A stretch of DNA of 64,000 nt from Rhizobiaceae bacterium (GCA_036778475.1 DAIPSP010000003.1:777-64776), one strand, 5' to 3'. Shown: positions 33,824-56,411, counted from the stretch's first letter. A program made the numbers and translations. Notes: generated by a model not told the origin, from the letters alone.

Positions 33824-33827
33824 ACCG

Positions 33828-35099: not shown

Positions 35100-35657
35100 A
35101 TGAAACGCCTGCTTGATATGATAGCCGCCGCTGCCGGGCTGGTCGTTGCACTGCCGGTGATCGTCGTCTTCTCAGTTCTGATCAGGAAGCAGTCTGGCGC
35201 CTCCGGGATATTCGCCCAGGATCGGGTCGGGAAAAACGAGAGAGTGTTCCGATGCTACAAGCTCCGAACCATGCGCCAGGATACGCCAGATCTGCCGACG
35301 CATATGGCCGGGAGCGCAAGCGTCACGCCGATCGGAAAATTTCTGCGTCGATATAAGGTGGACGAGCTTCCGCAATTGTGGAACGTCGTGAAAGGCGAGA
35401 TGAGCCTTGTCGGGCCTCGGCCTTGCCTGCTCAATCAAACCGAGTTGCGAGAGGAACGACGCTCGCGCGGGGTTTTCGACGTGCGGCCAGGCATAACCGG
35501 GCTGGCCCAGATCGAGGGCATCGACATGTCCGAACCCGCGCGGCTGGCAGAAAAAGACGCCGAATACGTGCAACGACAGACACTTGCGTCAGATCTTGCG
35601 ATCATCGTTCGCACGATTATCGGCGGCGAAGGGCGTGGCGATCGGGTCAGGCCGTAG
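35100..35657 (+). CDS. small bacterial sugar transferase (PglC/CapM/WbaP-C-terminal type polyprenyl-phosphate sugar-1-phosphate transferase)
   Basis: One N-terminal re-entrant helix ([25 protein letters not shown]), YKLRTM and [22 protein letters not shown] motifs. Confidence 0.9.
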
Positions 35658-35800: not shown

Positions 35801-37081
35801 TTACTTGACGTCGGCGTCATCCACCTGTTTGCGTTCGCCAGGCGGCCCTATGAGTTCGTTGCGCCAGGCAGTGAACAACTGATAGATCAGCAACCCCTTC
35901 CATACCGCAAAAACTGCAAGTGTCGTGCAGGCCGCCCCGACCGCTCCATATTTTGGAACGAGGACGAAATTGAGCGCGATGTTCACGAACGCCGCCGCGA
36001 TGGCAATGATCGAATAGACACGATGCTTGCCCTGCATCTGCGCGAAAAGAGCCAGCGGGCCTGTCGCCGTGTGAAAGAAATAAGCCATGGCGATGATGCG
36101 GATCGGCCAGAGCGCGTTGTTGGCCGCGTCGCCAAACACCAGCGTTGCGATTTGCGGGTAGATGATCAGCACAAGCGCCGGCACCAGCGCCAGGCCGCTC
36201 GCCATCAAACTGGCCTCCACCAACAGCTGGCGGCTCTTTGCGTGATCGCGCTCGATCCGGGCCGCCGAGAATCGTCCGCCATAGAGCGGCAGGATCAATG
36301 ACTGGCCGAGCATCAGCGTCGCGCCCAGCCTCACCCCCATGGCGTAGTGCGCCGTCTGTTCCGGCGTCGACAATGCCGACAACATGATGATGTCGCCACG
36401 GGAAATGATCACATTGCCAGCCTCCCCCGCGATCAGAGGCATCGTGTAGGCATTCCAGGCGCGGGTGACATAGCTTGGCCGGGCGGCCCGGACTTCATCC
36501 GGAACAGAGATCCACGCCCAGATCACCGAGAGGACACAGATCACCGCCGTTGCAATTGCATAGGCAAGGCATGCCTCCCAAAAGCCGCCTACAGTGAACA
36601 CCGCGAAAATAGCGATCGTTACGATCGGCAGGGCGACCTCATCTGGAAGGATTGAACTCAGCGGCATATGAAGTCCGCGAAACACCCCTTTCGACACCAT
36701 GATCACGGCCTGAAACGGCACTACGGCCAGACCTAGCCTGAATGCGGCAATCTGAGCCGGATCGCTGAATATCAATGGCGTCATCAGGTAGATCGGAATC
36801 GCCACCGCGACCGACAGAAGGATCGCCACCAGGTTCGCCTGGATCAGCGCTCCGCGAAATCTTTCCCAACGCTTGCGCAGGCCATACCGCGAGATCATCA
36901 AAACGATCCCGTGCATCCAGCCGCCGTTTGTCAGCGTGGCCAGGACCAGAAAACACGTCTGAAACAGAGCAAAATAGCCGTAGTCCTGCTCACCGATCTG
37001 GCGCACCAGAAGGCCATGCATGACAACGACGGCAAGCCCCCCGGCAACCTTGAATGCGGCCAGCCGGATGGCAGTTCGCAT
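35801..37081 (-). CDS. wzx: polysaccharide flippase (Wzx/MOP-superfamily-like)
   Basis: 426-aa protein that is hydrophobic throughout (about 12 predicted TM by eye), located in the glycan locus. Assigned by topology and context, not by a sharp motif. Confidence 0.7.
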   Translation of the reverse strand: MRTAIRLAAFKVAGGLAVVVMHGLLVRQIGEQDYGYFALFQTCFLVLATLTNGGWMHGIVLMISRYGLRKRWERFRGALIQANLVAILLSVAVAIPIYLMTPLIFSDPAQIAAFRLGLAVVPFQAVIMVSKGVFRGLHMPLSSILPDEVALPIVTIAIFAVFTVGGFWEACLAYAIATAVICVLSVIWAWISVPDEVRAARPSYVTRAWNAYTMPLIAGEAGNVIISRGDIIMLSALSTPEQTAHYAMGVRLGATLMLGQSLILPLYGGRFSAARIERDHAKSRQLLVEASLMASGLALVPALVLIIYPQIATLVFGDAANNALWPIRIIAMAYFFHTATGPLALFAQMQGKHRVYSIIAIAAAFVNIALNFVLVPKYGAVGAACTTLAVFAVWKGLLIYQLFTAWRNELIGPPGERKQVDDADVK

Positions 37082-37280
37082 CTCAAATCCTCTCGTCTAG
37101 GTTGGGCCAGCGATTGCACGCCGGCAAATCGACCGGCCCGCGGATGGTCAAGACGACCTGGGAAGGGCCGCCTTCTATCCGAAGCCATCGGATGCGTCGA
37201 CCCCGATGCAGCTTCCGCGGCCCGCCAGAATCTTCTTTTTCAGATTGTCATGCCGATCCGTCAAACGCTAATAACGCTTG

Positions 37281-38438
37281 ATGTATGACAGACACCTATC
37301 CCGAAGAAGCTTACTGGCGGGGGCGCTGGCGGTTCCGTTCCTGCGCGGCGCTGCGGTCGCTGGCGAGAACCTCGGCGCCATCATTGTCGGGTGCGGCAAT
37401 CGCGGCGCGCAACTCGCAACGATGATGGCGGCGATGAGCGAGCCGCCGGCGCCGGTTGCGTTCATCGACACGGTCGTCGGGAAAGCGGCAGCCTTGCGTG
37501 ACAGGATTTCGCCTTCCGCACCGGTCTATGCAAGCCTCGATGCGGCGTTTGACGCGGGCGTCTCCGCCCAGACGGCGATTGTCGCTACCTGGAACAGCGA
37601 ACATTTGCCTGTCATCGAGCCACTCCTTGCCAAGGGCTACCATGTCTTCTGCGAAAAGCCGATGACGGAGAGCCTCAGCGAAGCCAGGCGCATGGTCGAA
37701 CTGGACCGAAAGTATGGCGGAAGAATCCATATCGGGCTCGAGTTTCGCTACGCCCCGCTCTATCGACGAGTGAAAGAGATCATCGACAGCGGGCGGATAG
37801 GCGACGTGAAGTACATGGCGGCGGCCGAGTTGCGCGGCGACTGGTTCCGCTATTTTCCGGACGACGATGCGCGTGAGAACCAGACGAACTGGCGGTATTT
37901 TGAGAAAACGTGTGGCAACTCGATCCTCGAAAAACTGTGCCACGACTTCGACATCCTGACCTATGTCGGCGGCAAGACCCCGTCACGGGTCATCGCAAGC
38001 GGGGGCAAGGCAGTCTATACCAACCGGGAAACGGACGATCACGCGTCGATCATCCTGGAATACTCCGACGGAGCGGTAATGGATTGCTCGTTTTCGCTGT
38101 TTTCATCCGCCCCGCGCGACGAAACGATCATCATGGGAAGCCGCGGAACTCTGGCGTTCCGCCGTGTCGGGCAGGAGATTTCGGTCTGGAACAGCCTCAA
38201 ACCCAAAGGCAAGCCGGACGAGTTGATCTCGCTTGCCGTGAGCAAGCGCGACGTCGACAATCATTCCGGAACGATGGAAAGCCTGGTCGCGTTCTTTTCC
38301 GGTGTGCGTGACAGGGGGGCGATTTACCCCTCGCCCGAACAGGCCTGGATGACGACGGCCATCTGCTGCGCCGCGCATCATTCGGCTCGCAACCAGTCTG
38401 CACCGGTTGATCTCAGAGTTGAGCCCTATGTGATCTAA
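37281..38438 (+). CDS. Gfo/Idh/MocA family oxidoreductase with an N-terminal twin-arginine (Tat) signal
   Basis: MYDRHLSRRSLLAGALAVPFLRGAAVAGE (S-R-R-x-L-L, h-region, AVA|G) followed immediately by Rossmann GAIIVGCGNRGAQ and the family EKP motif (VFCEKPMTES). ORF-track start is TTG 37278; the ATG at 37281 is preferred. Confidence 0.8.
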   Translation: MYDRHLSRRSLLAGALAVPFLRGAAVAGENLGAIIVGCGNRGAQLATMMAAMSEPPAPVAFIDTVVGKAAALRDRISPSAPVYASLDAAFDAGVSAQTAIVATWNSEHLPVIEPLLAKGYHVFCEKPMTESLSEARRMVELDRKYGGRIHIGLEFRYAPLYRRVKEIIDSGRIGDVKYMAAAELRGDWFRYFPDDDARENQTNWRYFEKTCGNSILEKLCHDFDILTYVGGKTPSRVIASGGKAVYTNRETDDHASIILEYSDGAVMDCSFSLFSSAPRDETIIMGSRGTLAFRRVGQEISVWNSLKPKGKPDELISLAVSKRDVDNHSGTMESLVAFFSGVRDRGAIYPSPEQAWMTTAICCAAHHSARNQSAPVDLRVEPYVI

Positions 38439-38942: not shown

Positions 38943-39965
38943 TTGGCAGACCAAGTGACAGAAATCGTGATCGAAAGGAAGAATAAGAGTCGGCTTGAAA
39001 AGCCGCATAGTTTTGTCCTAGGCGCCCTTTTCAAGATATTCGTCGCAATAGGAACGTGGTATTTTTCTGTTGCCCTTCTGGAAGCATATGAATTCGGAGA
39101 TCAAGCTATATATCGCCGACTCTATGACCAACTTATCGGCGTAAAGATAGAAGATATCGGATACTATCAAGAATCCATTACAACAAGCGCCGACCCTGCA
39201 TTCGGCCTACTGATGTGGCTTGGTTCAAATTTTACTACATTAAGTCATACATATTTTATTTCTATATTTAACGTTCTTTTTGTTGTTTTGATAGTTGAAT
39301 ACCTAATAAGAAACCGAGCAACGCTTTCAATATCCCTCTTCTTGACCAACTATTACCTAATCGTGCTTTTGACCGGGGCGGAACGGTTGAAATTCGCGTA
39401 TATGGCAGCGATCGCCGCCGCTCTGACGGCAGGACGAATTCGATCGCTGATTTATCTGGCGATTTCTACCGCCTTCCACATCCAGATGCTCATCCTATAC
39501 GGCGCGTTTGCAACCGGGTGGCTGACAGCAGGAATGGGGGGCCTGGCGCGCAATGCGGAAGGCCAAGCAATTCGTAGATACTGGTTCGTATTCCTCTTGG
39601 CTGCAGCAGGAGCTGCTGCGATCATTTTCCGCTATGGTTCGCTAGTGGCATTCAAGATAAGCGCCTACTATGCAAATCTCGATCCCGCAGAAACCTTTGA
39701 TCTTGTTCTTGTACTAATTGTCGGTTTGGTGGCTCTAAGGTCCAAGGCGCGCTTTTTCGTCGAGATCGTTTTTTTGATGGCCGTCGCTATGGTGGTGGGA
39801 GACGAGCGGGTCTCGATGATCGGAATCACACTTCTGGCCTACAATGCCATCGAGCAGCGGAGGACGATGCATCCAGCCATAATTCTGATTCTTGGTTATT
39901 TCTCCTACAAATCAATAGCGTTTGTTCAACGCATATTTGATGTCGGAACTGGTTTTGGGACATAG
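38943..39965 (+). CDS. wzy: EpsG/Wzy-like polysaccharide polymerase (integral membrane)
   Basis: 340 aa with about 10 TM segments. Markedly AT-rich codon usage, as is typical of wzy genes. The first loop EAYEFGDQAIYRRLYDQL resembles the EpsG family. Start (TTG 38943) uncertain. Confidence 0.55.
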   Translation: MADQVTEIVIERKNKSRLEKPHSFVLGALFKIFVAIGTWYFSVALLEAYEFGDQAIYRRLYDQLIGVKIEDIGYYQESITTSADPAFGLLMWLGSNFTTLSHTYFISIFNVLFVVLIVEYLIRNRATLSISLFLTNYYLIVLLTGAERLKFAYMAAIAAALTAGRIRSLIYLAISTAFHIQMLILYGAFATGWLTAGMGGLARNAEGQAIRRYWFVFLLAAAGAAAIIFRYGSLVAFKISAYYANLDPAETFDLVLVLIVGLVALRSKARFFVEIVFLMAVAMVVGDERVSMIGITLLAYNAIEQRRTMHPAIILILGYFSYKSIAFVQRIFDVGTGFGT

Positions 39966-39973
39966 GAAAACTG

Positions 39974-40675
39974 TTGGCGAAAATTTGGCGTTATGCGGCA
40001 TTTTCGGCGCTGGCATCGGCGATGCTTGTGACAATCGGAGTTGGGGCACGCTACCAATACTCTGAAACAGTCGTTTGCGAGCCTGAAGGGACAGGGACGG
40101 CTCTGCAGATTTTTGCAGCCTTTGCCGGTTTCTATGTGACCAAAGACTGCGTTTTTGCAGAAATGAATGAAGGTGAAGCGCCATTCAAGCTCTTCGAAAA
40201 TGAATCCGGCACACCCATTGGCAAGTTTGAAAGCCGCATCAGTGTAAATCGGCAACATATCAGGGTATTTGGGCCGGGGCAGATTTTTACGGATTTGATG
40301 CCGGTGGACCTCGACGCCGACTATGTCATGGAAATTCGCGTCTCGGCCCCCAGGGTTAGCCCAACCATTGGAGAGGACCCAATCGGACCAGGATCGACCA
40401 AGTTCTTGGCCGGAATAGTGACGATTGATAAGGACGGAAATGTATTGACGTCGTCGCCAGGTCGACATCGCTACGGCTTGGGACTTCAGACTCTGGTCGC
40501 AAGCAACGGCCAGTGGCGGCTTTTTCGGTCAACGTTCTCAGGCGTTGGCAACGACAATTCTCAACAGTTCAGACCAGCAACCGCCTTCATTCGCGGTGTG
40601 ATTTTCGCCAATTTTGAGAGCGCGGAAAGTGCAATAATGGATATTGATTACATACGCATCTGGAAAAAGAGATAG
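39974..40675 (+). CDS. hypothetical signal-anchored protein, paralogue of the C-terminal domain of 30385..31269
   Basis: TTG start 9 nt after the wzy stop (AGGAAAA upstream). N-terminal anchor AAFSALASAMLVTIGVG. C-terminal motifs: PVDLDADYVMEIRV...DKDGN...PGRHRYG...SGVGNDNSQQFRPATAFIRGV. Confidence 0.6.
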   Translation: MAKIWRYAAFSALASAMLVTIGVGARYQYSETVVCEPEGTGTALQIFAAFAGFYVTKDCVFAEMNEGEAPFKLFENESGTPIGKFESRISVNRQHIRVFGPGQIFTDLMPVDLDADYVMEIRVSAPRVSPTIGEDPIGPGSTKFLAGIVTIDKDGNVLTSSPGRHRYGLGLQTLVASNGQWRLFRSTFSGVGNDNSQQFRPATAFIRGVIFANFESAESAIMDIDYIRIWKKR

Positions 40676-40811: not shown

Positions 40812-41774
40812 CTATGCGGACAGGAACCACCGCAAGGTCGCGTCCAGTCCGGCCTTGAGCGGCGTTCGCGCCTGCCAGCCCAACATTTTGCGGGCCTTCG
40901 ATGTGTCCGAGAAATTTCGCATCACATCTCCCGCCCTGCGTTCAGAATTGACGATTTCCGGCGCCTGCAAACCGGCAGAAATAAATGCTTGCGTCAGCGC
41001 CAGCGCCAGTTCGTTGACGGTCGTTTCCTTAGCTGTAGCGATCTGAAAAATCTCACCCGCGACACCATCCCGGGTGGCCGCGGCAAGCACCGCGTCGACC
41101 AAATCATCGATAAAAATGAAATCGCGTGTCTGCCCTCCGTCTCCGTAGATTTCCCATCTCTCACCTGTCATGGCCGCCTTGATGAACTTGGCGACCACGC
41201 TGGCCTTGTGCGTCGACAGCGGCCCGTAGACATTGCCGAAGCGCAGCGCGACGGTTTCCACACCAAAGCAGCGCCAATACGCGGAGCAATATCCTTCGCC
41301 GGCAAGCTTGGATGCGCCATAGGGCGACGCGGGCCTGGGCGCCATTTCCTCGTGGATCGGCGGTGGATTGTCACCGACCGGCGCACCCGAAGATGCAAAT
41401 ACGAAGCGCTTGACGCCCGCGTGACGGGCTGCTTCGAGGGCATTCAACGTGCCCATGACGTTGACACGGCAATCCATGTGCGGATCGGCTACGGACGGCG
41501 CGACACCGGTATTGGCCGCAAGATGCACAATGCAGTCGGCGCCGGTCGCGCCTTGCGCCAACCGATCCGCGTCGAGAATGTCACCCATGATGACAGCTAC
41601 GCGCCCGACGGCTTCGTGAGAAACGCCTGATGCGTACAAGGCCGAGAACAGGTCAACATCAGAACTGGTTGAGAAATTGTCGAAGACAACGATTTCGTTG
41701 TCGGGGTCTTTCAACAGCCGAATGCAAAGGTTGCGGCCAATGAACCCGCAGCCGCCCGTTACCAGATATTTCAC
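40812..41774 (-). CDS. NAD-dependent epimerase/dehydratase (extended SDR, UDP-hexose 4-epimerase-like)
   Basis: MKYLVTGGCGFIGRNL, SSGAPVG, SPYGASKLAGE (YxxxK). The start overlaps the upstream GT4 stop (ATGA). Confidence 0.85.
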   Translation of the reverse strand: MKYLVTGGCGFIGRNLCIRLLKDPDNEIVVFDNFSTSSDVDLFSALYASGVSHEAVGRVAVIMGDILDADRLAQGATGADCIVHLAANTGVAPSVADPHMDCRVNVMGTLNALEAARHAGVKRFVFASSGAPVGDNPPPIHEEMAPRPASPYGASKLAGEGYCSAYWRCFGVETVALRFGNVYGPLSTHKASVVAKFIKAAMTGERWEIYGDGGQTRDFIFIDDLVDAVLAAATRDGVAGEIFQIATAKETTVNELALALTQAFISAGLQAPEIVNSERRAGDVMRNFSDTSKARKMLGWQARTPLKAGLDATLRWFLSA

Positions 41775-42949
41775 GATACTTCCTTGCCCCTATGCTTGCC
41801 TGCCAAGCCGCGATATAATGTTTCGTGCTTTTGGGCGATACTGGACGTATCGAATATCTCGACAGCGACAGATCGACCGTTGCGCGACATTCGGCCGTGC
41901 AGTTCATCGTCGGTCAGAATCCTGATCGACGCCTCGGCCATCGCATCCGGGTCCTGACGCGGGACGACAGCACCGCATTCCTGATCCGGGCGCTGAAGCA
42001 TTTCGCGTACTCCGCCGACTTGGTACGCTACCACCGGGACCCCGCAGGACATGGCTTCCAAGACGGCGATCGGACAGGCCTCGGACGCAGAGGTCAGGAG
42101 CAGGAGATCAAACTCCCGGATCAGCGCCGCCGGCTCGGCAACAAAGCCACGAATATCCAGTTTGTCGCGCATCCCGAGATCGTCGGCCAGTTTCATCACA
42201 CCGTCGTAGTAATCCTTGTGATTGTCGAGATAACTGCCGATGATCACGCCCTGGACCGGCGCCGCAAGTCTGTCCGAAATATCTTTCAGCACTCGCACGA
42301 ATTGATCGTGTCCCTTGCCATGATTCCAGTTTGCGACAATTCCCACCTTGATCGTCGATCCTTGCTCACTCCCTGTATCCGGCGTGAATTTTGATGTATC
42401 GACGGGCGCAAACAGGACCTCGAACTGATCATCGGCCAAGCCGTGATGGCGCCCGACAGCAGAAGCGGCGGCGACCATCAAATCAGCGATGCGATATGCA
42501 ATTCCCCCCATGATACGCGCCAGGCGCGGTGGCAGACCCGTGTCGTTCAAGTGCCACATCACCGGAATTCCCGCCCACTTCGCCGCCAGCGCCGGTGCGA
42601 CCAGATAGATTCCGTTTACATGGACAACATCAGGTTTGCGTTGGGCAAACAGTCGGCCGAAGCGGCGAACATCGCCGGGAAATGAGGCAAACCAGTTCGT
42701 CAGTTCGCCGAGCTTTCTTGGATTCGGAATCTTCGCCTGCTGCAATTGTTCAGTTGCAACGCCACCGTCGGCAAATTGCTGGACTGCATTGCCGCCGGTG
42801 GCCGGCACAACCGCCGTGGTCTCGACCGCCTCCCGCTGCAGAAGCTGGCCGACAGTGAGCACTCGCCTTTGCGGTCCCCCAAAGCGTGCGTCATGCAGAC
42901 AATTCAGAACCGTGATTGGAGATTTTTCGTCGATCGCCATGCGCACCAA
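41771..42949 (-). CDS. GT4-family glycosyltransferase (GT-B)
   Basis: C-terminal EACPIAVLEAMSCGVPVVAYQVGGVREML is the GT4 E-x7-E region. The N-terminal half has the GT4 acceptor-domain pattern. Start at 42949 or at the ATG at 42940. Confidence 0.8.
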   Translation of the reverse strand: MVRMAIDEKSPITVLNCLHDARFGGPQRRVLTVGQLLQREAVETTAVVPATGGNAVQQFADGGVATEQLQQAKIPNPRKLGELTNWFASFPGDVRRFGRLFAQRKPDVVHVNGIYLVAPALAAKWAGIPVMWHLNDTGLPPRLARIMGGIAYRIADLMVAAASAVGRHHGLADDQFEVLFAPVDTSKFTPDTGSEQGSTIKVGIVANWNHGKGHDQFVRVLKDISDRLAAPVQGVIIGSYLDNHKDYYDGVMKLADDLGMRDKLDIRGFVAEPAALIREFDLLLLTSASEACPIAVLEAMSCGVPVVAYQVGGVREMLQRPDQECGAVVPRQDPDAMAEASIRILTDDELHGRMSRNGRSVAVEIFDTSSIAQKHETLYRGLAGKHRGKEVS

Positions 42950-43364: not shown

Positions 43365-44468
43365 ATGAGTATCTTTTCCGGACAATCAGTTCTTGTGACC
43401 GGCTCCTGCGGGACCGTCGGCAGTGAACTGGTGCGACAGTTGCTTGCGATGCCTGACGGCCCGAAAGAGGTCATTGGCCTCGACAACAATGAAAGCGAAC
43501 TGTTTTTCCAGGACCAACGGTATCTGTCGGATGGCCGCGCCCACTTCTTTCTGTGCGATCTTCGCGACCATGAGTCGCTCAACCGGCTCACGCGCGGCAT
43601 TGACGTCATATTTCATGCCGCAGCGCTCAAGCACGTCATCATGTGCGAGCGATCGCCGATGGACGCCGTCAATACGAATATCCTGGGCGTCCAAAATATT
43701 GTCTCCGCGGCCGAAGCAAACGGGGTCAAGAGAGTTATCTTCACGTCGTCAGACAAGGCGGTTAACCCGACTAATGTGATGGGCACATCGAAGCTGATGG
43801 GCGAACGCCTCATTACGGCCGCCAACTCGCGGTTACGCGATTCCCGCACCGTTTTTGCATCGACCCGCTTCGGCAATGTTCTCGGCTCGTCGGGATCGGT
43901 CCTGCCAATCTTCCGGCGCCAGATCGAAGCCGGTGGGCCGGTCACCCTCACCGACAGGAACATGACCCGCTTTGTCATGAGCGTCGAGCAATCGGTCGAA
44001 CTGGTGCTTTCGACAGCTGGCCTCGCGCGCGGCGGCGAAGTTTTCATCACAAAGATGGAGATACTCCGGATCGCCGATCTGGCGGAGGCCATGGTCGAAA
44101 TGCTGGCGGCTGACTATGGCCACCGGCCCGAAGACATCAAGATCGTCGAGATCGGCCCGAAGCCCGGTGAAAAACTCTATGAGGAACTGATGAGTGACGA
44201 AGAGTGCCGCCGCACTGTCGAGCTCGACCGGTTCTTCGTTGTCAAACCCGCGTTCTCGGGGGTTTTCTCCCAGATCGACTACAGTTATGGAGACATGGCT
44301 GAGAAGCCGGTCGACGCGCCATACGTATCGTCGACACGGCCGGCGATGAACAAGGAAGAAATCAAACACTTCCTCAAGACCGTCGCCGCCTTTGATTTGG
44401 ATGCAAAGCGTCCACCCTCCCCCGCGTCTCGCTACTGGCCTGGCGACAAAGAAGAGTACAAGAAATGA
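43365..44468 (+). CDS. short soluble CapD/PseB-like polysaccharide biosynthesis SDR (nucleotide-sugar 4,6-dehydratase/epimerase-like)
   Basis: SVLVTGSCGTVGSELVRQL, IFHAAALKHV, TSSDKAVNPTNVMGTSKLMGE, RFGNVLGSSGSVLPIF, MTRFVMS. The alternative TTG start is at 43353. Confidence 0.8.
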   Translation: MSIFSGQSVLVTGSCGTVGSELVRQLLAMPDGPKEVIGLDNNESELFFQDQRYLSDGRAHFFLCDLRDHESLNRLTRGIDVIFHAAALKHVIMCERSPMDAVNTNILGVQNIVSAAEANGVKRVIFTSSDKAVNPTNVMGTSKLMGERLITAANSRLRDSRTVFASTRFGNVLGSSGSVLPIFRRQIEAGGPVTLTDRNMTRFVMSVEQSVELVLSTAGLARGGEVFITKMEILRIADLAEAMVEMLAADYGHRPEDIKIVEIGPKPGEKLYEELMSDEECRRTVELDRFFVVKPAFSGVFSQIDYSYGDMAEKPVDAPYVSSTRPAMNKEEIKHFLKTVAAFDLDAKRPPSPASRYWPGDKEEYKK

Positions 44469-45613
44469 AGATATTGGTGCTTGGTGGCGACGGCTACCTC
44501 GGCTGGCCGACGGCCATGGATCTTGCTGACCGCGGTCATGAAGTCGCGGTCGTCGATAACTATTTGCGGCGTGACCTGGCCCGCAACGAAGACGTTTCGC
44601 CCCTTTTCACGCTCCCAAATCTGGTTGAGCGTTGCAGGATCTGGAACGAGATTTCCCCTCAGCAGATCACGCCTTTTGTCGGCGATCTGCGCGATTGGAC
44701 GTTTGTCCAGCAGGTGTTTACGTCGTTCACGCCCGACGCGGTCATTCACTATGCTGAGCAGCCGTCCGCCCCTTATTCGATGTTGCGCCGGCAGGCAGCG
44801 TCGCTAACCTTGTCCAACAACCTCGAGGTGACGGCCAATGTCATCTTCGCGGTGCGCGAATTTGCGCCCGACGCGCATATCGTGAAACTCGGCACGATGG
44901 GCGAGTATGGCACACCGAACATCGACATCGAAGAAGGCTGGTTGAACGTCGAACACAAGGGCCGTTCAGACAAGTTCCTGTTCCCCCGGCAAGCCGGGAG
45001 CCTCTACCACACCACCAAGATCATGGACACTGACCTGCTCTGGTTCTACACGCGCATGTGGGGGCTTGCGGTGACCGATCTCATGCAGGGGCCTGTCTAC
45101 GGTATCTACACTGATCAGTCGGAACGCGATGAACGTTTGCTGCCGCATTTCGCCTACGACGAGTTGTTCGGAACGGTGCTCAACCGCTTCACCGTGCAGG
45201 CCGTCGCCGGCTATCCGCTGACAGTCTATGGCAAGGGCGGGCAAACTCGCGGCTATCTGAACATTCGAGATACGCTGCAATGCGTGCGCCTGTCGCTCGA
45301 GAACCCCTCGAAGAAGGGCGAACTGCGGATTTTCAACCAGTTCGTCGAGACATTCTCCGTCAACGACCTGGCCGAACGCGTTCAGGCTGCAGGCAAGGAA
45401 ATGGGGCTTTCGGTTGAGATCAAGTCGATTGCAAACCCGCGGATCGAGCGCGAGGAGCACTACTACAATCCTGCTCATACCGGCCTCATTGACCTTGGCC
45501 TCAAGCCCCATCCGCTGACAACCGAAGTCCTGACCCAGATCATGGAGAAAATCACGCGCCACAAGGACGCGATTGATGTTCACAAGATTTTCCGTGGGAC
45601 AAAGTGGGCCTGA
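44465..45613 (+). CDS. sqdB: UDP-sulfoquinovose synthase (SQD1/SqdB/Agl3 family)
   Basis: Near-continuous agreement with my recollection of plant SQD1: ILVLGGDGYLGWPTA, VDNYLRR, HYAEQPSAPYSM, IVKLGTMGEYGTPNIDIEEGW, RQAGSLYHTTK (Tyr-His-x-x-Lys), TDLMQGPVYG, YDELFGTVLNRFTVQAVAGYPLTVYGKGGQTRGYLNIRDTLQCV, FNQFVETFSVNDLA, NPRIEREEHYYN. The ATG overlaps the upstream stop (ATGA). Confidence 0.9.
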   Translation: MKILVLGGDGYLGWPTAMDLADRGHEVAVVDNYLRRDLARNEDVSPLFTLPNLVERCRIWNEISPQQITPFVGDLRDWTFVQQVFTSFTPDAVIHYAEQPSAPYSMLRRQAASLTLSNNLEVTANVIFAVREFAPDAHIVKLGTMGEYGTPNIDIEEGWLNVEHKGRSDKFLFPRQAGSLYHTTKIMDTDLLWFYTRMWGLAVTDLMQGPVYGIYTDQSERDERLLPHFAYDELFGTVLNRFTVQAVAGYPLTVYGKGGQTRGYLNIRDTLQCVRLSLENPSKKGELRIFNQFVETFSVNDLAERVQAAGKEMGLSVEIKSIANPRIEREEHYYNPAHTGLIDLGLKPHPLTTEVLTQIMEKITRHKDAIDVHKIFRGTKWA

Positions 45614-45821: not shown

Positions 45822-46976
45822 TTACGCCCTGTCAGGGGCGTTGTTAAGCTCGACCCCTTGCCAGCGGTTCGAGAGCTTTGCGGTGCCGAGGATCAGCCTG
45901 ACCACGCGCTGCGACGTATTCTCGATCTGATAGTCCTGCGGAATTGGCGGAAACCTGCCAGCCCTGAAATCGCTCACCGCCAGGTTGACCGAGTCAATGA
46001 TCGTCTGTTGGTCAAGCCCGGTCAGGATGATCGAACCTGTGTCCATCGCCTCGGGCCGTTCCAGCGCGTTGCGGATCGTCACCGCTGGGAACCCGAGCAT
46101 CGACGATTCCTCGCTGATGGTCCCGGAGTCGGAAATTGCGCAAAGGGCTTCCATCTGCAGCTTGTTGTAGTCGTGGAAGCCGAAAGGCTTGAGGAAACGC
46201 AGATTGTCGCTCGCGGAAATGCCGAACGCCTCCATCCGCTTGCGCGTGCGCGGGTGGGTCGAGACGACGACCGGCGCCGACAGGATCTGCGACAGCGCCT
46301 CGAGCGCGTCGATGATCGACGTCAGCGCGGCGCGGTTGTCGACATTTTCCTCGCGATGGAAGGACGCGATCAGGAATTTTTTCGGCTCCAGTCCAAGCCG
46401 TGCGAGAATGTCGCTCTTGTCGATCCTACCGCGATAGGCATTCAGAACTTCGTGCATCGGCGACCCGGTCACATAGATGCGACGGTGCGGAAGCCCTTCC
46501 GCCAGCAGATGCCGACGGGCATGTTCGGTGTAGCACAGGTTGAAGTCAGACACGTGGTCAACCAGTCGCCGGTTCAATTCCTCGGGCACGTTGAAGTCGA
46601 AGCAGCGATTGCCCGCCTCCATGTGATAGACGGGAACCTTGTTCTTGCGCGCGGCAACGGCTGCGACGCATGAATTGGTGTCTCCCAGCAAAAGGACCGC
46701 GTCGGGCTTTTCCTGCCGTATCGCCCTGTCGCTGGCGATGATGACGTTTCCGATCGTCTCCGAGGCGGTTTCGCCGGCGGCCTCGAGGAAATGATCAGGC
46801 TTTCGCAGGTCCAGATCGTTGAAGAAAATGCCATTAAGTTCGTAGTCGTAATTCTGGCCGGTATGAACGATCACCTGGTCGACGACGTCGTCCAGCGCGT
46901 GAATTACCTTGGACAGACGGATCCATTCCGGTCGCGTCCCGGCGATGGTCATTACTTTCAGTCTGGCCTTTGGCAT
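45822..46976 (-). CDS. fnlC: UDP-N-acetylglucosamine 2-epimerase, non-hydrolysing (FnlC/CapG/WbjD-like)
   Basis: KVMTIAGTRPEWIRLSKVI, LLLGDTNS, HMEAGNRCFD, PEELNRRLVDHVSD, DSGTISEES. Confidence 0.9.
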   Translation of the reverse strand: MPKARLKVMTIAGTRPEWIRLSKVIHALDDVVDQVIVHTGQNYDYELNGIFFNDLDLRKPDHFLEAAGETASETIGNVIIASDRAIRQEKPDAVLLLGDTNSCVAAVAARKNKVPVYHMEAGNRCFDFNVPEELNRRLVDHVSDFNLCYTEHARRHLLAEGLPHRRIYVTGSPMHEVLNAYRGRIDKSDILARLGLEPKKFLIASFHREENVDNRAALTSIIDALEALSQILSAPVVVSTHPRTRKRMEAFGISASDNLRFLKPFGFHDYNKLQMEALCAISDSGTISEESSMLGFPAVTIRNALERPEAMDTGSIILTGLDQQTIIDSVNLAVSDFRAGRFPPIPQDYQIENTSQRVVRLILGTAKLSNRWQGVELNNAPDRA

Positions 46977-46988: not shown

Positions 46989-48149
46989 TCAGTTTGCCGC
47001 GCGCGGCGCCGCGGAGCGTAACATTGACGGTTTCAGAACCGGGTCGGCATAGGTGTCCGGCGCGGATGGGTCGAAAAGATCGTGGGTCCAGAACAGGGTC
47101 AGCAATGGCTTGCTGCCGGTATTCTCGATCGAATGCGTGTGCAGGGTCGGCATATCGACTGCAGCGGGCTCGTCACCATTGACCTTGTATTCCCAGACGC
47201 CTGCGCCAAGAACCTTGCGAATGCGGATCACTGCCTCGCCGGACACCACCAGGAAACGCTCGACCTTCGCCAGATGGAAGTGGTCGCCTCGCGTCACCCC
47301 GGGTTCGGTCCAGGACATGAAGGTCTGGCCGCCTCCCCCGCCCTTGACGGCTTCGAACAAAACGCCGCGGGCGTCCCTGTTGAGCTTGAGCGGGCGCGGG
47401 AAACCGTCCGGATAAAGGGCGGCGCGATAGGAATTGAACAAGGTCAGGTCGAAATCGTCGCTCAGGTCGGGAAATATACCAGCCAGATACGAGCCGTGGA
47501 ACATCCTGAGCCTGTCCAGCAAATCCTGCACCGCAGTCGGCCTTGCTTCAGGTTCGATCGTGCCGGATTGTCTCGCAATGGCCGCGTCGATGGCGATTTG
47601 GGCAGCGCGCCCCGCATGCAGCAGTTTGACCTGTGCGCCGGGATTGACCGTCGGTTCCTCGCCGACGATCAACTGCTGGCACAGGGTCGCCGTCACATTG
47701 TTGTAGAACGAACGCGCGCACTCCCCGAAAATATGCGGCAAGATCAGATCGGAAAATCCGCCCTTGTTGGCCTCGAGCAAGCTGGCCGCGTTGCGCTTGG
47801 ATCGACCGTAAGGCGTGTCGCCGCGCGAATGGGTCGAATTAGCATAGACGATGTGGGCGTTGGCGCCGGAAACTTCGACCGCCGCCGCAAGTTTGCGGGA
47901 AATGGCTGGATTTGCATCTTCCATTTCCTCGTCGGGGCGCCGGTTGACCCCGGCGAAATGCAGCACCGCATCACAACCGCGCAGGGCTTGCGCCAGTTGC
48001 GACACATCGTCGAATTCGCGCCGTCCTAGCAGGACCATTTCATACGGTACCGACTGGCCGCGAAAGCGCGCAGCGCAATTCGCAGCATGGAGGCGGGCGG
48101 CGGCGTGCCAGCCCAGCAGTCCATCTGCGCCCGTTACGGCAATCTTCAT
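46989..48149 (-). CDS. fnlB: CapF/FnlB/WbjC-like bifunctional reductase/epimerase (N-terminal SDR plus C-terminal cupin)
   Basis: MKIAVTGADGLLGWH, then the C-terminal cupin RGVLFEAVKGGGGGQTFMSWTEPGVTRGDHFHLAKVERFLVVSGEAVIRIR...HSIENTG...FDPSAPDTY. Confidence 0.85.
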   Translation of the reverse strand: MKIAVTGADGLLGWHAAARLHAANCAARFRGQSVPYEMVLLGRREFDDVSQLAQALRGCDAVLHFAGVNRRPDEEMEDANPAISRKLAAAVEVSGANAHIVYANSTHSRGDTPYGRSKRNAASLLEANKGGFSDLILPHIFGECARSFYNNVTATLCQQLIVGEEPTVNPGAQVKLLHAGRAAQIAIDAAIARQSGTIEPEARPTAVQDLLDRLRMFHGSYLAGIFPDLSDDFDLTLFNSYRAALYPDGFPRPLKLNRDARGVLFEAVKGGGGGQTFMSWTEPGVTRGDHFHLAKVERFLVVSGEAVIRIRKVLGAGVWEYKVNGDEPAAVDMPTLHTHSIENTGSKPLLTLFWTHDLFDPSAPDTYADPVLKPSMLRSAAPRAAN

Positions 48150-48181: not shown

Positions 48182-49231
48182 CTATGCCGCAGACGGGTTC
48201 CAGGATTGCAGTTCCGCGGCGACTTCCGGCAATGAAAGCAGCAATTCCTTCACCTCGGCAACCGTCATGCGCCTGGTGTTGTGCGAATGATAATCCGCCA
48301 GTTCGCTTGCCTGTTCGTGCCCTTCGCTGAAATAGGCTCCGTAGTTGAGATCGCGATTGTCCATCGTAATGCGATAATATTCGCCAAGGTCCTCGCTTGA
48401 CGCGAGTTCCTGAGCCGTCGCCAGCGTTTCGTACAGCTTTTCACCATGACGCCAGCCAATGACATCGACAGGATGATCCTGACGGCCGAACAACTCCTTC
48501 AGCGCGGTCACCAGATCGGCAATCGTCGACGCAGGCGCCTTCTTGATGAAAAGGTCGCCCTGACGCGCATTTGAAAATGCGAAATCGACCAGGCTGACCG
48601 AGTCGCGCAGCGGCATCAGGAAGCGGGTCATCTGCGGCGCGGTCACGGTGACCGGCTTGCCGGATTTGATCTGCCGGATAAACAGCGGGATCACCGAGCC
48701 GCGAGAATACATGACGTTGCCATAGCGGACGCTGGAAATTGTCGTCTTCGCCTTGGGGCCGATCTCCCGGGCGGCGGCCTGGGCGACCTTTTCCATCATC
48801 GCCTTGGAGATTCCCATGGCGTTGATCGGGAACACGGCCTTGTCAGTCGACAGGCAGACAAGGCTGCGCACCTGCGTCGAGATCGCGGTCCTAACGACAT
48901 TTTCAGAACCGAGCACATTGGTGCGCACCGCCTCGATCGGGAAAAATTCGCAGGACGGGACCTGTTTCAGCGCCGCGGCGTGAAAAACCGCATCGGCGCC
49001 GCGCATCGCGCGCTCGACGCTCTCCCGGTCCCGGATGTCGCCGACAAAAAACCGGACACGGCTGTCGCGAATGTCATTGCGCAGCGCATCCTGCTTTTCC
49101 TCGTCGCGGCTAAGCACTCTTATTTCAGCGCAATCCGATTGCAGCAGGTTCCGCAGCATTGTCTTGCCAAAAGAACCGGTTCCGCCGGTTATCAGCACAG
49201 TATCAGTCGTCACGGATTTGTCCTTCCGCAA
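48182..49231 (-). CDS. fnlA: UDP-N-acetylglucosamine 4,6-dehydratase/5-epimerase (FnlA/CapE/WbjB-like)
   Basis: VLITGGTGSFGKTML, FHAAALKQVPSCEFFPIEAVRTNVLGSENV, CLSTDKAVFPINAMGISKAMMEKV, VRYGNVMYSRGSVIPLF, MTRFLM, GWRHGEKLYE, NSHNT. Very close to the CapE pattern. Confidence 0.9.
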   Translation of the reverse strand: MRKDKSVTTDTVLITGGTGSFGKTMLRNLLQSDCAEIRVLSRDEEKQDALRNDIRDSRVRFFVGDIRDRESVERAMRGADAVFHAAALKQVPSCEFFPIEAVRTNVLGSENVVRTAISTQVRSLVCLSTDKAVFPINAMGISKAMMEKVAQAAAREIGPKAKTTISSVRYGNVMYSRGSVIPLFIRQIKSGKPVTVTAPQMTRFLMPLRDSVSLVDFAFSNARQGDLFIKKAPASTIADLVTALKELFGRQDHPVDVIGWRHGEKLYETLATAQELASSEDLGEYYRITMDNRDLNYGAYFSEGHEQASELADYHSHNTRRMTVAEVKELLLSLPEVAAELQSWNPSAA

Positions 49232-49276: not shown

Positions 49277-50740
49277 TCAACCGGCGGTTGCGCGCCGATT
49301 TCTCACCACTGGTTCGACAAGCGCGTACACGATCGCGGACAAAAAGCCAATCAAACCGAAAATCGCCAGCACCAGCAATGCTCCTAACGGACCAATTGAT
49401 CCTACAGTTTCCGGCGTCGTCAGTTCCGAATAGAGCACCCCGGCCCTGTCGAGCGAACGGTCGCGAGCGAGCACAAGCAGATCCTGATAGCTCTTGGTCA
49501 ACGTAGCAAGTTCCGTCACGGCCTGTTCACGCAGCCCCGCCGGCGCCACGACGCCCTGATCTGGAGCGACCCAGGCAAGCGTCTGCCGCAAACCGGAAAT
49601 CCGCTCGACCAGTTCCTGTCGGTCGTTCAGCAGCTTTTGCACGTAACCGGCAAAGGAGGCGCGCTCGGCAAGCCCGACGATCTGCCCAAGCGATGTCTCA
49701 CTGATCTCGATACGATCGCCAGTCAACGGAGGGGATCCATTGGTGCCTGAACTCGTCGTGCCGTCAGGGCTTTTCTGAAGCCGCGCGATATCATCGATCG
49801 AACGATCCAGGCCGGAGACGCGGCGCTCGAAATCTGCAATCTGGAGTTCGAGATCACGCATGTATGCGCGTGACATGGCGTCGTTTCCGGTAACGCCATT
49901 CACAAACAGAAGATTGAAATAGACGGTCCGGAACCGGCTCAACTGTTCGTTCAGATCCTCCGCGGAAATGCCGCCCGAGGTGACCAGAGAAGCCAACCGG
50001 TTGTCCGTGCCGATGATTTCCAATCCTCGCTTGATCGTGTTCAGCCGCGTACTGGCGACGAGCAGACTGGAGGTCGTATCCAGATTTTCTTCCGACAAGG
50101 TTATTCCGGCGGACGTCAACTTGGTGTCGGTCAGGATGCGGTATTGCTTGGTGTAAATCTCTTTCCAGACCTGCGGGACCGCGACAGCGATGGCCGCGCC
50201 AACATTCTGGCCGACGCCCAGGCCTCGATAATCAACATCGATGCGCAGGCCGCGTCGCGTCGTGTTCGCTAGCTCCGCCTGATATGCCTGGTTCAAGGCG
50301 TCGATGTCGGCCTGCGTCAGATTTCTCGCCGAAAGCCTGTCTCGATATTTCTGCGACACGCCGGCCGAAGCCGGATTGTCGTAACCGATGGCGATGTTCT
50401 CCCGAAGGTCGTTGCTCTTCAGCCTGAAGTCCTCACCCAATTTCTGTATGATGGCCGAACCAACAAGATCCTCGGGAGAGAAACGCGTCCCGTTCGGATA
50501 TGACCCGTCCGAGATGCTTTGCAGTGACACGTAGTAGACAATCGAACCGCCGCCGCGCCAATACATCGTCGCAACGACCGCCGTCCCGATCATTAGAGCA
50601 AGCGCCGTCGCCGCTACTATGACGCCACGCTTGCGCCAGAGCCTGCGAACAACCGCTCCAACGGAAATCTCCTGACCTTCAAGATCGTCAATCTGCTCGG
50701 CGCCCAACGATTCTCCGCCTCTGTCTTGTTTCGTCATCAT
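49277..50740 (-). CDS. polysaccharide co-polymerase / chain-length determinant (Wzz/PCP-like)
   Basis: ORF 49277..50848, start MMTKQDRGG at 50740. N-terminal TM (VIVAATALALMIGTAVVATMYW), a large coiled-coil-rich periplasmic region and a C-terminal TM (LGALLVLAIFGLIGFLSAIVYALV). This is PCP topology. No kinase domain. Confidence 0.7.
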   Translation of the reverse strand: MMTKQDRGGESLGAEQIDDLEGQEISVGAVVRRLWRKRGVIVAATALALMIGTAVVATMYWRGGGSIVYYVSLQSISDGSYPNGTRFSPEDLVGSAIIQKLGEDFRLKSNDLRENIAIGYDNPASAGVSQKYRDRLSARNLTQADIDALNQAYQAELANTTRRGLRIDVDYRGLGVGQNVGAAIAVAVPQVWKEIYTKQYRILTDTKLTSAGITLSEENLDTTSSLLVASTRLNTIKRGLEIIGTDNRLASLVTSGGISAEDLNEQLSRFRTVYFNLLFVNGVTGNDAMSRAYMRDLELQIADFERRVSGLDRSIDDIARLQKSPDGTTSSGTNGSPPLTGDRIEISETSLGQIVGLAERASFAGYVQKLLNDRQELVERISGLRQTLAWVAPDQGVVAPAGLREQAVTELATLTKSYQDLLVLARDRSLDRAGVLYSELTTPETVGSIGPLGALLVLAIFGLIGFLSAIVYALVEPVVRNRRATAG

Positions 50741-50871
50741 GCAGTTGACCCGATTCGATCTGTATTCGCCAAGCCGTTGCAACGGATTTGAGGCGGATTG
50801 ACGGCTGGATCTGAAGCATTGCGTCGTAGCGCGGCCGCCATTTAGCAAACATAGATACGCCTGTCATAGCT

Positions 50872-52209
50872 TTACTGTGACAGCGTCCCGATTTTGCCGG
50901 TGGCAGCTCTACGCTCGAATTCGACATGTCGATGGCCCCCTTCATCCTGTTCACTCGGATCTGGACCCGTGAGCCTCGCAAGCGCATTCAATGCAACCAC
51001 CACCATGCAAAAATAAGATACTTTGATATCGTGATAAAAACCGATCGCGGTCGCAGAGAATAGCGCGGTGAAGAGGGCGAACGAAATGCCCATGGTTTTC
51101 CAAGGCGCCGGCGCGCGCCACGTAACAATGACCGGCGCGACCAAAACCATCAAAAAGGCCAGCAGTCCAATGACGCCTGACGACACAAGTTCGGTCAAAT
51201 AGGCGTTATGCAGGTGCGTAAAGCGCAGGTAGGCATCGTCTGCCGACTGCTCATTGGCGACCGCCATCATGTTCTGGCGTCCATATCCGAACAGGGGGGA
51301 TTTCATGGCCGCCTGCCACCCGACCTGCGCCATGTGCTTGCGCATCTCCAGGCTCTGGTCGCCGTCGTCGCTGTGCGAGTCGCTGTAAATCATGTCGACC
51401 AGGGCGGCCGAGCGTTGCGCCAATCCCGCGAAAATCGGCGTGTCATCGACCGTCTCGTAGACGATCGCAATGGAGCAGAACGCGAGATATGTCACGATCA
51501 CCCATTGACGCCAGTTCAATCGGCCAAGGCGCGGCAGCAAAGTCAGGAAAACCAATCCGGCGGTCAATACAAAGTAGACGATAGCGGCGCGGCCGCCGGC
51601 CATAGCCAGGCTGATCGCACTACCAGCCAGTCCCGCGGCATAGACCGGCCAGAACCTGCTTTTGCCGAGCACCAGCAAGACGAAGCAGAACAGGCCGGTG
51701 GAAGCTGACAGATAGGCCAGGATCTGCGGATTGCCGACAAAGGCTTCGGCTCGGGCTGACGTTCTCGCGCCCAGAAGCGCGGCTGCGCCGACAAGGACGC
51801 CGCCCAGGCCGATGCCAAGAGGAATCCAGTCGCGCCAATAGGGTCTGGCTGAAAATCGCAAGACCGGCAAAAGCGGCAGCATGACGATGAAGCCGACATT
51901 GCCCTCCATTTCCCAAAGGCCGGCGGACCGGTTGTCGTGCACTTGCGTAGACAGGAGCGACAGGCCGAAATATGCGACAAAAATGCTCGCAACGGCAATC
52001 TCGGTTCCGGTCAGCTTTCCAAGACGCCGCCAATCGAACGCCAGAAACACCAATGCGACGATCGCCATTCCGATCGAAACGACAGTCAACGCCGAACCAA
52101 ATGTCGGCATCAGGCAAAGCGTCGCGCTCGTGAAGATGGCCCACCGCCAGGACACGCTGGCGTCAGAACGATGTATTTTCGTCCAGAAGAAGCGGGAAAG
52201 GATATGCAT
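50872..52209 (-). CDS. O-antigen ligase family protein (Wzy_C/WaaL-type)
   Basis: About 11 TM segments. A periplasmic loop carries SLAMAGGRAAIVYF and the ...GYGRQN...FTHLHNAYLTELVSSGVIGLLAF pattern (H-x-H-N-x-Y-L) typical of the O-antigen ligase/Wzy_C domain. Confidence 0.75.
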   Translation of the reverse strand: MHILSRFFWTKIHRSDASVSWRWAIFTSATLCLMPTFGSALTVVSIGMAIVALVFLAFDWRRLGKLTGTEIAVASIFVAYFGLSLLSTQVHDNRSAGLWEMEGNVGFIVMLPLLPVLRFSARPYWRDWIPLGIGLGGVLVGAAALLGARTSARAEAFVGNPQILAYLSASTGLFCFVLLVLGKSRFWPVYAAGLAGSAISLAMAGGRAAIVYFVLTAGLVFLTLLPRLGRLNWRQWVIVTYLAFCSIAIVYETVDDTPIFAGLAQRSAALVDMIYSDSHSDDGDQSLEMRKHMAQVGWQAAMKSPLFGYGRQNMMAVANEQSADDAYLRFTHLHNAYLTELVSSGVIGLLAFLMVLVAPVIVTWRAPAPWKTMGISFALFTALFSATAIGFYHDIKVSYFCMVVVALNALARLTGPDPSEQDEGGHRHVEFERRAATGKIGTLSQ

Positions 52210-52458
52210 AAGGGCAAATGACCGGTAAAGTTGCAGCTTGTTCGGTCCCGCCCCTCATCGAACCCGACACGCTCCGTCCTACCCGATCCGGCTTGCCGGT
52301 CAAAGTATCTTCCGATATTAATCTTACGATCTGGGTCCTCTTGGAAAAATATATTGTATGCAATGGGAGTTCTGGCGCTCCCGGACTCCGGAAACTGAGA
52401 TGCCGTCGAGAATCGAGTTTCGGCTCCATTGTCACGAGTAGCCGGGTGGTTGGTCACA

Positions 52459-55241: not shown

Positions 55242-56411
<1,170 letters not shown>

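Follow-up and report, generated by a model that had tools for sequence, protein, structure and literature searches.

According to reviews up to 2026, sulfoquinovose is the headgroup of a phototroph lipid, sulfoquinovosyl diacylglycerol (SQDG), and a component of a few archaeal N-glycans. Its uridine diphosphate (UDP)-activated form is made for SQDG by SQD1 of Arabidopsis and by SqdB of cyanobacteria, Rhodobacter and Sinorhizobium, which belong to the extended short-chain dehydrogenase/reductase (SDR) family. Agl3 of the archaeon Sulfolobus acidocaldarius provides the precedent for transfer of the sulfosugar into an N-glycan and acts alone on UDP-glucose (UDP-Glc) (PMC4388408). A relay between two SDRs has been described in Bacillus thuringiensis, where Pen hands the 5,6-ene of UDP-6-deoxy-N-acetylglucosamine (UDP-6-deoxy-GlcNAc-5,6-ene) to Pal, which re-oxidises C4 (PMC8987622). 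Here we analyze a gene pair at positions 43365-45613 of a 64,000-nucleotide stretch from Rhizobiaceae bacterium (GCA_036778475.1, DAIPSP010000003.1:777-64776), referred to below as the window, in which an SQD1-like gene directly follows a gene for a predicted nucleotide-sugar dehydratase. From sequence and genomic context we lean slightly towards the view that the pair is the core of a module for a UDP-activated C6-sulfonated sugar, possibly an N-acetylhexosamine (HexNAc), which would be built into a Wzx/Wzy-type surface glycan and not into SQDG.

The two genes of the pair are as follows.

43365-44468, + strand: partner SDR, a soluble 367-aa predicted nucleotide-sugar dehydratase of the Polysacc_synt_2 family (PseB/FnlA/Pen-like; PF02719, 317 bits)
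44465-45613, + strand: SQD1-like extended SDR of the ‘P101 type’, 382 aa, a predicted C6-sulfonating enzyme (match to 1QRR)

Both open reading frames (ORFs) and their ATGA overlap, as called in the original prediction, are borne out by translation and by direct reading of the DNA: the ATG at 43365 and the overlap at 44465-44468, where the partner stops and the SQD1-like gene starts, are both seen in the sequence, and the motifs GTMGEYGTPNIDIEEG and YHTTK are found in the translation of the 382-aa protein. In a phmmer search against the PDB, this protein aligns with the SQD1 structures 1QRR and 1I24 over residues 2-381 with no gaps (E 2e-128). It is 49% identical to Arabidopsis SQD1, and the match is far beyond chance. 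Counting along the ungapped alignment reproduces the literature numbering of SQD1, which we use below except where residues of the window protein are specified. The GxxGxxG motif appears as GGDGYLG (window residues 7-13), and T144, Y181, H182 and K185 of the window protein correspond to SQD1 T145, Y182, H183 and K186, which are kept in all sampled members of its clade. Also kept in the window protein are the GTMGEYG loop (SQD1 M146, E148 and Y149) and Q209; the equivalents of Met146, Glu148 and Tyr149 are important in Agl3 mutants (PMC4388408). The window enzyme shares its catalytic residues with SQD1, SqdB and Agl3, and the earlier description of a full-length SQD1-family enzyme with an intact catalytic set holds.

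A residue comparison of 78 clade members with SQD1, two SqdB proteins (S. meliloti and Marinovum) and four other relatives found only seven positions that differ systematically between the clade and the characterised enzymes. At the position of SQD1 Arg101, all 78 clade members have Pro (P100 in the window protein), while SQD1, both SqdBs and three of the four other relatives have Arg. Every member carries the signature L34Y, F97Y, R101P and Y160W. The corresponding residue of Agl3 is the arginine of EQ-R-SAP, identified via the primer sequences of Table 1, and its alanine mutant is inactive (PMC4388408). Agl3 differs from the window enzyme not only in being archaeal and in acting alone on UDP-Glc, but also in needing an arginine where the window enzyme, with its coupled dehydratase, has EQ-P-SAP. 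The position lies five residues past the conserved His of strand beta-4. It matches what we take, from our own count of the E. coli sequence, to be K84 of E. coli GalE, and it matches G102 of WbpP as counted in the 1SB8 sequence. WbpP G102 is among the residues contacting the sugar nucleotide (PelX preprint). By this analogy, the invariant R101P change would sit in the substrate/cofactor pocket, with a role for Arg101 that we infer from its position.

Among 90 full-length representatives of 50%-identity clusters, sampled across the whole SQD1-like family, the Arg101 position is Pro in 64 and Arg in 20. A neighbour-joining tree of 104 sequences, built without Agl3, places the window clade apart from both the SQD1/actinobacterial clade and the alphaproteobacterial SqdB clade, and these latter two hold most of the Arg-type sequences, including all reference enzymes. 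Identity to the SqdB proteins of S. meliloti and Marinovum, which are encoded in sqdB-sqdD-sqdC operons, is 40%. We therefore regard ‘bona fide SQD1/SqdB-type’, the wording of the original prediction, as too strong. The phylogeny and active-site alignment that it had proposed as checks support retention of the catalytic residues and speak against membership in either the SQD1 or the SqdB clade, given the separate branch and R101P. Judged by sequence, the protein belongs to the SQD1 superfamily, retains the catalytic machinery and falls outside any characterised UDP-sulfoquinovose synthase clade. Its score against the NCBIfam UDP-sulfoquinovose synthase equivalog NF041015 (450 bits, cutoff 575) says little: the cutoff is also missed by proteins of the alphaproteobacterial SqdB clade, of which one paralogue scores 330 bits, and the S. 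meliloti record gives SqdB a generic annotation. A single-sequence AlphaFold2 model was unusable, with a mean predicted local distance difference test (pLDDT) score of 36, but the fold is settled by the sequence alignment with 1QRR.

The wider family includes several unusual members and settings. A deltaproteobacterial metagenome-assembled genome (locus L056) has two SQD1-like genes about 2.4 kb apart (6350-7558 and 10001-11143), one an Arg101 type of 402 aa from the alphaproteobacterial SqdB clade (37% identity with the window protein) and the other a Pro101 type (63%). No gene for a Polysacc_synt_2 partner lies within 10 kb, which hints that the Arg-type enzyme might substitute for it. On a phage-like contig with an ERF recombinase and many tiny ORFs (L093:547-5598), a Pro-type gene (P0146, 52% identical) precedes genes for a further SDR, a radical-SAM/SPASM protein and a cytidylyltransferase. 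Another Pro-type gene (P0137, 45%; L090:554-6367) is flanked by an aspartate-semialdehyde-dehydrogenase-like gene on one side and by histidinol-dehydrogenase-like and HisG-like genes on the other. Many family representatives (P0126, P0132, P0145, P0151, P0161-P0163 and P0218) have 680-1100 aa and are either unusually long or else interrupted by or fused to extra sequence; the query aligns to them in two or three separate stretches, its C-terminal half often at about residues 450-730. A haloarchaeal SQD1-like gene with Pro at position 101, on a plasmid of Haladaptatus pallidirubidus (L089:6001-9202), is followed by two more SDR genes. We considered this neighbourhood as an instance of the same cassette and dropped it, since these SDRs are not orthologous to the bacterial partner. 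On pAt of Agrobacterium tumefaciens (L088:535-8335), an Arg-type SQD1-like gene (35%) is found among four glycosyltransferases and methyltransferases, beside an acyl-homoserine lactone synthase gene, which is another non-SQDG context.

The association of the SQD1-like gene with its partner was examined from both sides. A forward scan with one genome per species yielded 80 loci with SQD1-like homologues at 61-76% identity. Their hosts include Desulfobacterota, Alphaproteobacteria, Gammaproteobacteria, Chloroflexi, Bacteroidota (Saprospiraceae and Cyclobacteriaceae), Actinomycetota (Rubrobacter), Planctomycetota (Brocadiia), Verrucomicrobiota and Acidobacteriota. In 64 of the 80 genomes, the immediate upstream neighbour in the same orientation is a partner orthologue (46-65% identity); most others have one nearby, and the gap to the SQD1-like gene is mostly -4 to +40 nucleotides. 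The reverse test started from partner homologues in metagenome contigs and assessed only loci with enough flanking DNA. These homologues split sharply into those with at least 52% identity and those with at most 46%. In the former group, the SQD1-like gene is directly downstream in 9 of 11 assessable loci; of the two exceptions, one has a different Pro-type SQD1-like gene 1.4 kb upstream, and the other has an APS kinase gene and a PAPS-reductase-like gene directly downstream (APS, adenosine 5'-phosphosulfate; PAPS, its 3'-phosphorylated form). None of the 31 assessable loci of the more distant paralogues has an SQD1-like gene, so the partner clade is set apart from its nearest paralogues both by the identity gap and as the only one linked to SQD1-like genes. 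The partner was also not found in the canonical sqdBDC loci of S. meliloti and Marinovum algicola. The coupling to a CapD-like SDR proposed from the window is therefore conserved across phyla whichever gene is used for the search, and on this comparative sequence evidence it is real. The pair is most likely the core of a mobile, horizontally spread and widely distributed module. While SQD1 and SqdB serve a membrane lipid, the window enzyme has a glycan context, a clade of its own and a near-obligate Polysacc_synt_2 partner.

The partner scores below both candidate NCBIfam equivalogs, PseB (258 bits, cutoff 408) and FnlA (224 bits, cutoff 730), and is thus neither; the locus has FnlA-like and WbpM-like genes of its own besides. 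Among solved structures, the top match is Pen (6BWC, E 2e-73). The motif TSSDK...VMGTSK is invariant in 68 partner orthologues and places the partner in the [ST]DK..Mx3K class with 4,6-dehydratases of UDP-GlcNAc (PglF, WbpM, CapE and FnlA), members of the same Pfam family, and not in the Yx3K class of PseB, Pen and TunA (motif classes as in PMC8987622). The Yx3K typical of 5,6-dehydratases of the Pen/TunA type is thus Mx3K in all 68 orthologues.

Two further genes next to the pair, divergent from it and co-oriented with each other, were overlooked in the original prediction.

40812-41774, - strand: WbpP/WbgU/GalE-type SDR, third cassette member (PDB matches)
41771-42949, - strand: glycosyltransferase of family 4 (GT4) (Pfam Glycos_transf_1 and Glyco_trans_4; the public gene call starts at 42940)

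The third SDR matches WbpP, WbgU, GalE enzymes and UDP-uronate epimerases at E values of 1e-39 to 1e-50, with 7YS8, 1SB8 (WbpP, 2.5e-48) and 3RU9 at 1e-46 to 1e-50. It has the S...Yx3K triad (SSG...YGASK) without the D/E pair of dehydratases, which together with the epimerase similarity gives it the features of a 4-epimerase-type enzyme. The triad is the same as in WbpP, WbgU, TviC and the UDP-glucuronate 4-epimerases, although all NCBIfam equivalog scores are below cutoff. We predict that it works on the product of the cassette as a C4-epimerase or reductase; activity on a C6-sulfonate would be analogous to that of the epimerases of C6-carboxylate sugars. Of 77 loci, 30 contain an orthologue of the third SDR (44-63% identity), and in 22 of these it occupies position +1. 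The GT4 gene overlaps that of the third SDR, and its product has only generic (exopolysaccharide) GT4 matches in NCBIfam. Homologues at 30-34% identity lie beside the cassette in the closest loci (L001, L008, L018 and L044), making this GT4 a candidate transferase for the cassette sugar. The recurrent neighbours of the cassette are glycan genes: DegT aminotransferases (16 loci), GT4 (13), family 2 polyprenyl-phosphate glycosyltransferases of the ArnC/AglJ type (12), Wzx (11), UDP-Glc dehydrogenase (UGD; 8), sulfotransferases (8) and NeuB (7).

In the window, the pair lies within an island of lower GC content (52-60% over about 28-54 kb, against about 65% in the flanks), which by its gene content is a Wzx/Wzy-type surface-glycan locus. 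Its remaining genes include the following (TM, transmembrane).

32906-33823, + strand: SDR (profile searches)
33798-35093, + strand: WcaI-like GT4 (profile searches)
35100-35657, + strand: small polyprenyl-phosphate sugar-phosphate transferase, initiating (profile searches)
35801-37081, - strand: Wzx-type flippase (PF01943; weak WZX_like match; eight predicted TM segments)
37278-38438, + strand: GFO/IDH/MocA-type oxidoreductase (Pfam GFO_IDH_MocA N- and C-terminal domains; NCBIfam matches sub-threshold only)
38943-39965, + strand: multi-TM membrane protein, possibly a Wzy-like polymerase (six predicted TM segments; no Pfam or NCBIfam match)
45822-46976, - strand: FnlC-like 2-epimerase (wecB 231 bits, above cutoff)
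46989-48149, - strand: FnlB/WbcJ-like reductase (WbcJ 181 bits, below equivalog cutoff)
48182-49231, - strand: FnlA-like dehydratase (FnlA 456 bits, below equivalog cutoff)
49277-50848, - strand: protein with polysaccharide co-polymerase (Wzz-like) topology (TM segments at residues 74-96 and 480-516 around about 380 hydrophilic residues; no family match in Pfam/NCBIfam searches)
50872-52209, - strand: Wzy_C-domain membrane protein, O-antigen ligase or polymerase (PF04932, 8.6e-17; nine predicted TM segments)
52429-54429, + strand: long membrane-anchored WbpM/PglF/CapD-type UDP-GlcNAc 4,6-dehydratase (Polysacc_synt_2 in the C-terminal half; four N-terminal TM segments)

This agrees with the surface-glycan setting originally described, and the absence of an sqdD-like gene of glycosyltransferase family 8 (GT8) from the window is borne out as well. 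The flippase and the FnlA/B/C-like genes of the earlier gene inventory are found, and by sequence the latter constitute a separate pathway of the UDP-L-N-acetylfucosamine (UDP-L-FucNAc) type. The chain-length regulator is recognized by topology only, and the gene at 50872-52209 can be read as ligase or polymerase alike, because the Wzy_C domain is found in both. The window thus holds three nucleotide-sugar routes (the cassette, the FnlABC-like set, and the WbpM-like dehydratase with SDRs) and three transferases (two GT4s and one initiating phosphotransferase), which fits a trisaccharide repeat. The island is edged on one side by a DUF2793 protein (31440-32885, -) and on the other, per public gene calls, by a RAMA-domain N6_N4 DNA methyltransferase (55278-56411, +); these genes and the GC drop fit a horizontally acquired island. 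A strain variant from another metagenome (L082; JGI 3300028901), with flanks that appear otherwise conserved, has a single 411-aa ORF of no known family (L082:5159-6394) where the window has two ORFs (340 aa, multi-TM, and 233 aa; 38943-40675), which looks like a swap in the putative polymerase/modification region.

Sulfate assimilation genes lie just outside the island, mostly in the high-GC flank.

24466-25224, - strand: cysH, APS/PAPS reductase (NF002537, 238 bits, cutoff 154)
25594-26400, - strand: cysQ, PAP phosphatase (Pfam Inositol_P)
26393-28297, - strand: cysNC, sulfate activation (APS_kinase and GTP_EFTU)
28297-29271, - strand: cysD, sulfate activation (PAPS_reduct; NF009214, 537 bits, cutoff 413)

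The gene at 28297-29271 was rejected as an APS reductase, being CysD; the real cysH is at 24466-25224 (tblastn). The sulfur genes that the original prediction saw next door are therefore present, but their adjacency in this window is weak evidence alone, because the cluster looks like core assimilation. CysNC of the window is 85-91% identical to proteins of Mesorhizobium and other Phyllobacteriaceae, which places the organism, known from wastewater metagenomes, in the Hyphomicrobiales. Elsewhere the link is closer. In 7 of 77 loci, spread over four phyla, cysH shares a co-directional gene string with the cassette (235-261 bits, cutoff 154), with hosts among Verrucomicrobiota, Saprospiraceae/Saprospirales and Anaerolineae/Litorilinea and in the cultured Rhodobacterales species Histidinibacterium aquaticum. 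The typical order is cysH, SDR, partner, SQD1-like gene and epimerase, and cysD/cysNC are found near the cassette in further loci. The observed frequency of 9% compares with about 0.2% expected by chance for cysH within four genes, by our estimate of one cysH among several thousand genes. CysH makes sulfite, the co-substrate of SQD1, while O-sulfotransferases need PAPS and not sulfite. We consider this linkage the strongest indirect evidence that the clade has retained sulfite chemistry.

Genes for sulfolipid assembly were sought in the window and in the 80 loci. With S. meliloti and Marinovum SqdD as tblastn queries (E<=1e-3), the window gave no SqdD (GT8) homologue, none turned up in any of the 80 loci, and for SqdC there was only generic SDR-level similarity in both. 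Compared with sqdBDC operons, which carry SqdD and SqdC without the partner, the cassette has the partner without SqdD or a specific SqdC. One reference locus (L085; CP090106.1, 3045309-3056463) comes from a record labelled S. meliloti Ak57 ‘plasmid pSymB’, which at 3.7 Mb and with tolQR, ruvAB and sqdBD is evidently the chromosome. Its sqdC is unannotated and reads in two frames, suggesting a frameshift or pseudogene.

Taken as a sulfosugar module, the cassette would combine the chemistry of SQD1 and Agl3 with a relay logic that we draw by analogy from Pen and Pal, Pen being the nearest solved structure to the partner. CysDN, CysC and CysH, whose genes are present beside the island, would convert sulfate to sulfite and so supply the module. 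The partner would oxidise C4 of a UDP-hexose and eliminate its 6-OH to give a 5,6-ene or 4-keto-5,6-ene. UDP-GlcNAc is the most likely substrate, because to our knowledge every characterised Polysacc_synt_2 enzyme uses it. The SQD1-like enzyme would then capture the 4-keto-5,6-ene, or re-oxidise the released 5,6-ene as Pal does with the product of Pen, after which sulfite would add at C6 of the enone and C4 would be reduced, using the kept T145, Y182, H183 and K186. The relay would differ from that of Pen and Pal in having Mx3K in place of Yx3K in the first enzyme, an SQD1-like protein in place of Pal as the second, and sulfite addition in place of hydride reduction. The expected product would be UDP-6-sulfo-N-acetylquinovosamine, or UDP-sulfoquinovose if the substrate were UDP-Glc, and Pro for Arg101 in the sugar pocket fits a substrate other than plain UDP-Glc. 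The WbpP-like SDR (40812-41774) may epimerise C4 to give a sulfofucose-type configuration, and the GT4 at 41771-42949 may transfer the sugar into the repeat unit. This repeat would also contain an L-FucNAc-type sugar and a WbpM-derived 6-deoxy-HexNAc, and would be flipped by Wzx and then polymerised. As a tentative suggestion that may well prove wrong, the cassette would make a type of sugar not described before, UDP-N-acetyl-6-sulfoquinovosamine (2-acetamido-2,6-dideoxy-6-sulfo-glucose), and its C4 epimer through the third SDR, by ene/enone hand-over to the Pro101-type SQD1 homologue.

Several points weigh against a sulfosugar module of this kind. The sulfite chemistry of the clade is read from sequence and gene context, and the loss of Arg101, essential in Agl3, could mean that this chemistry has been lost or changed. 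The Pro101 type appears to be functionally heterogeneous, given the sister Pro-type clades in the non-glycan contexts described above (L090 and L093). E148, Y149 and H183 are all kept, so there is no sequence sign that the SQD1-like enzyme has given up its own dehydratase step, and an ene-releasing role for the partner is a guess, given that it has the Mx3K of true 4,6-dehydratases. The cys cluster of the window is probably a vertically inherited core assimilation cluster, cysH adjoins the cassette in only a minority of loci (about 9%), and the sulfotransferases at eight loci could explain some of the PAPS genes. Finally, the distance correlation between the two proteins of the pair (mirror-tree) is moderate (r = 0.41) and is not used as support.

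The alternative that survives best, which we nevertheless find doubtful, takes the SQD1-like protein as an ordinary, self-sufficient UDP-sulfoquinovose synthase using UDP-Glc and sulfite. The SDRs would then tailor UDP-sulfoquinovose by C5/C3 or C4 epimerisation into other 6-sulfo-hexoses, e.g. sulfofucose, or make a separate sugar, a second and unrelated 6-deoxy-HexNAc that always accompanies sulfoquinovose in the glycan. The 49% identity to SQD1 and the retention of every residue proposed for oxidation and dehydration agree with this, SQD1, alphaproteobacterial SqdB and Agl3 are all taken as UDP-sulfoquinovose synthases though mutually as distant as this clade, and a C6-anionic sugar is a conceivable substrate for a WbpP/TviC-like epimerase. 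Self-sufficiency is hard to reconcile, however, with a near-obligate and translationally coupled upstream dehydratase of the UDP-GlcNAc type, or with the invariant R101P change in the pocket, where Agl3 depends on the arginine. On chemical grounds, moreover, a Polysacc_synt_2 enzyme oxidising C4 of UDP-sulfoquinovose would tend to re-eliminate the sulfite.

We think it unlikely that the P101 clade has instead given up sulfite altogether and acts as a dehydratase, epimerase or reductase that, with the partner, makes an ordinary or unusual deoxy, keto or ene sugar, with the nearby sulfur genes serving O-sulfotransferases or general assimilation. The lost Arg101 would be explained, as would the occurrence of sulfotransferases in eight loci and of the Pro type in 64 of 90 full-length family representatives, some of them in unrelated contexts; Agl3 itself releases UDP-Glc-5,6-ene in the absence of sulfite (PMC4388408). 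What this leaves unaccounted for is the strict retention of the SQD1-specific His183 beside the catalytic Tyr, and the presence of cysH in the cassette gene string at seven loci, where its product would consume the PAPS or APS on the way to sulfite when O-sulfation needs PAPS. Synthesis of the membrane lipid SQDG, with the GT4 at 41771-42949 acting like cyanobacterial SqdX or plant SQD2, is very improbable judging from context: SqdX and SQD2 are indeed GT4 enzymes, sqdB-sqdX adjacency is known in cyanobacteria (PMC13436972) and the GT4 gene adjoins the pair, but this gene is not conserved with the cassette across loci, its NCBIfam matches are to generic exopolysaccharide enzymes only, the pair sits inside an island with Wzx, Wzy and phosphoglycosyl transferase genes, and SQDG synthesis requires no Polysacc_synt_2 partner.

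In the literature searched, of which coverage was incomplete, we found no description of a bacterial polysaccharide with a C-sulfonated sugar, of ‘sulfoquinovosamine’ or of this gene pair, in line with the novelty originally proposed, and no relevant account of sqdB from glycan loci or from non-phototrophs. For sulfofucose, a 2025 study notes the lack of any known biosynthetic pathway. If the module makes a C6-sulfonated sugar, bacteria, including non-phototrophs, would carry C-sulfonated sugars on their surfaces, new sulfosugars such as a sulfonated HexNAc would be possible, and an unrecognised input would exist to the organosulfonate pool used by sulfoglycolytic and sulfonate-respiring microbes. 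The signature Y34, Y97, P101 and W160, together with the Mx3K partner, separates the cassette genes from true sqdB, a distinction of consequence for metagenomic surveys in which ‘sqdB’ is taken to indicate sulfolipid. Among the cultured carriers of the cassette are Desulfatibacillum alkenivorans DSM 16219 (L010), Rubrobacter marinus SCSIO 52915 (L051), Histidinibacterium aquaticum (L029, cysH adjacent), Gilvimarinus agarilyticus JEA5 (L080) and Desulfonema magnum, which makes these predictions directly testable. If the HexNAc reading is true, the cassette would be a widespread and overlooked source of organosulfonate, with carriers including sulfate reducers, anammox bacteria, Chloroflexi and Bacteroidota, and the same logic would provide the missing biosynthetic route to sulfofucose-type sugars.

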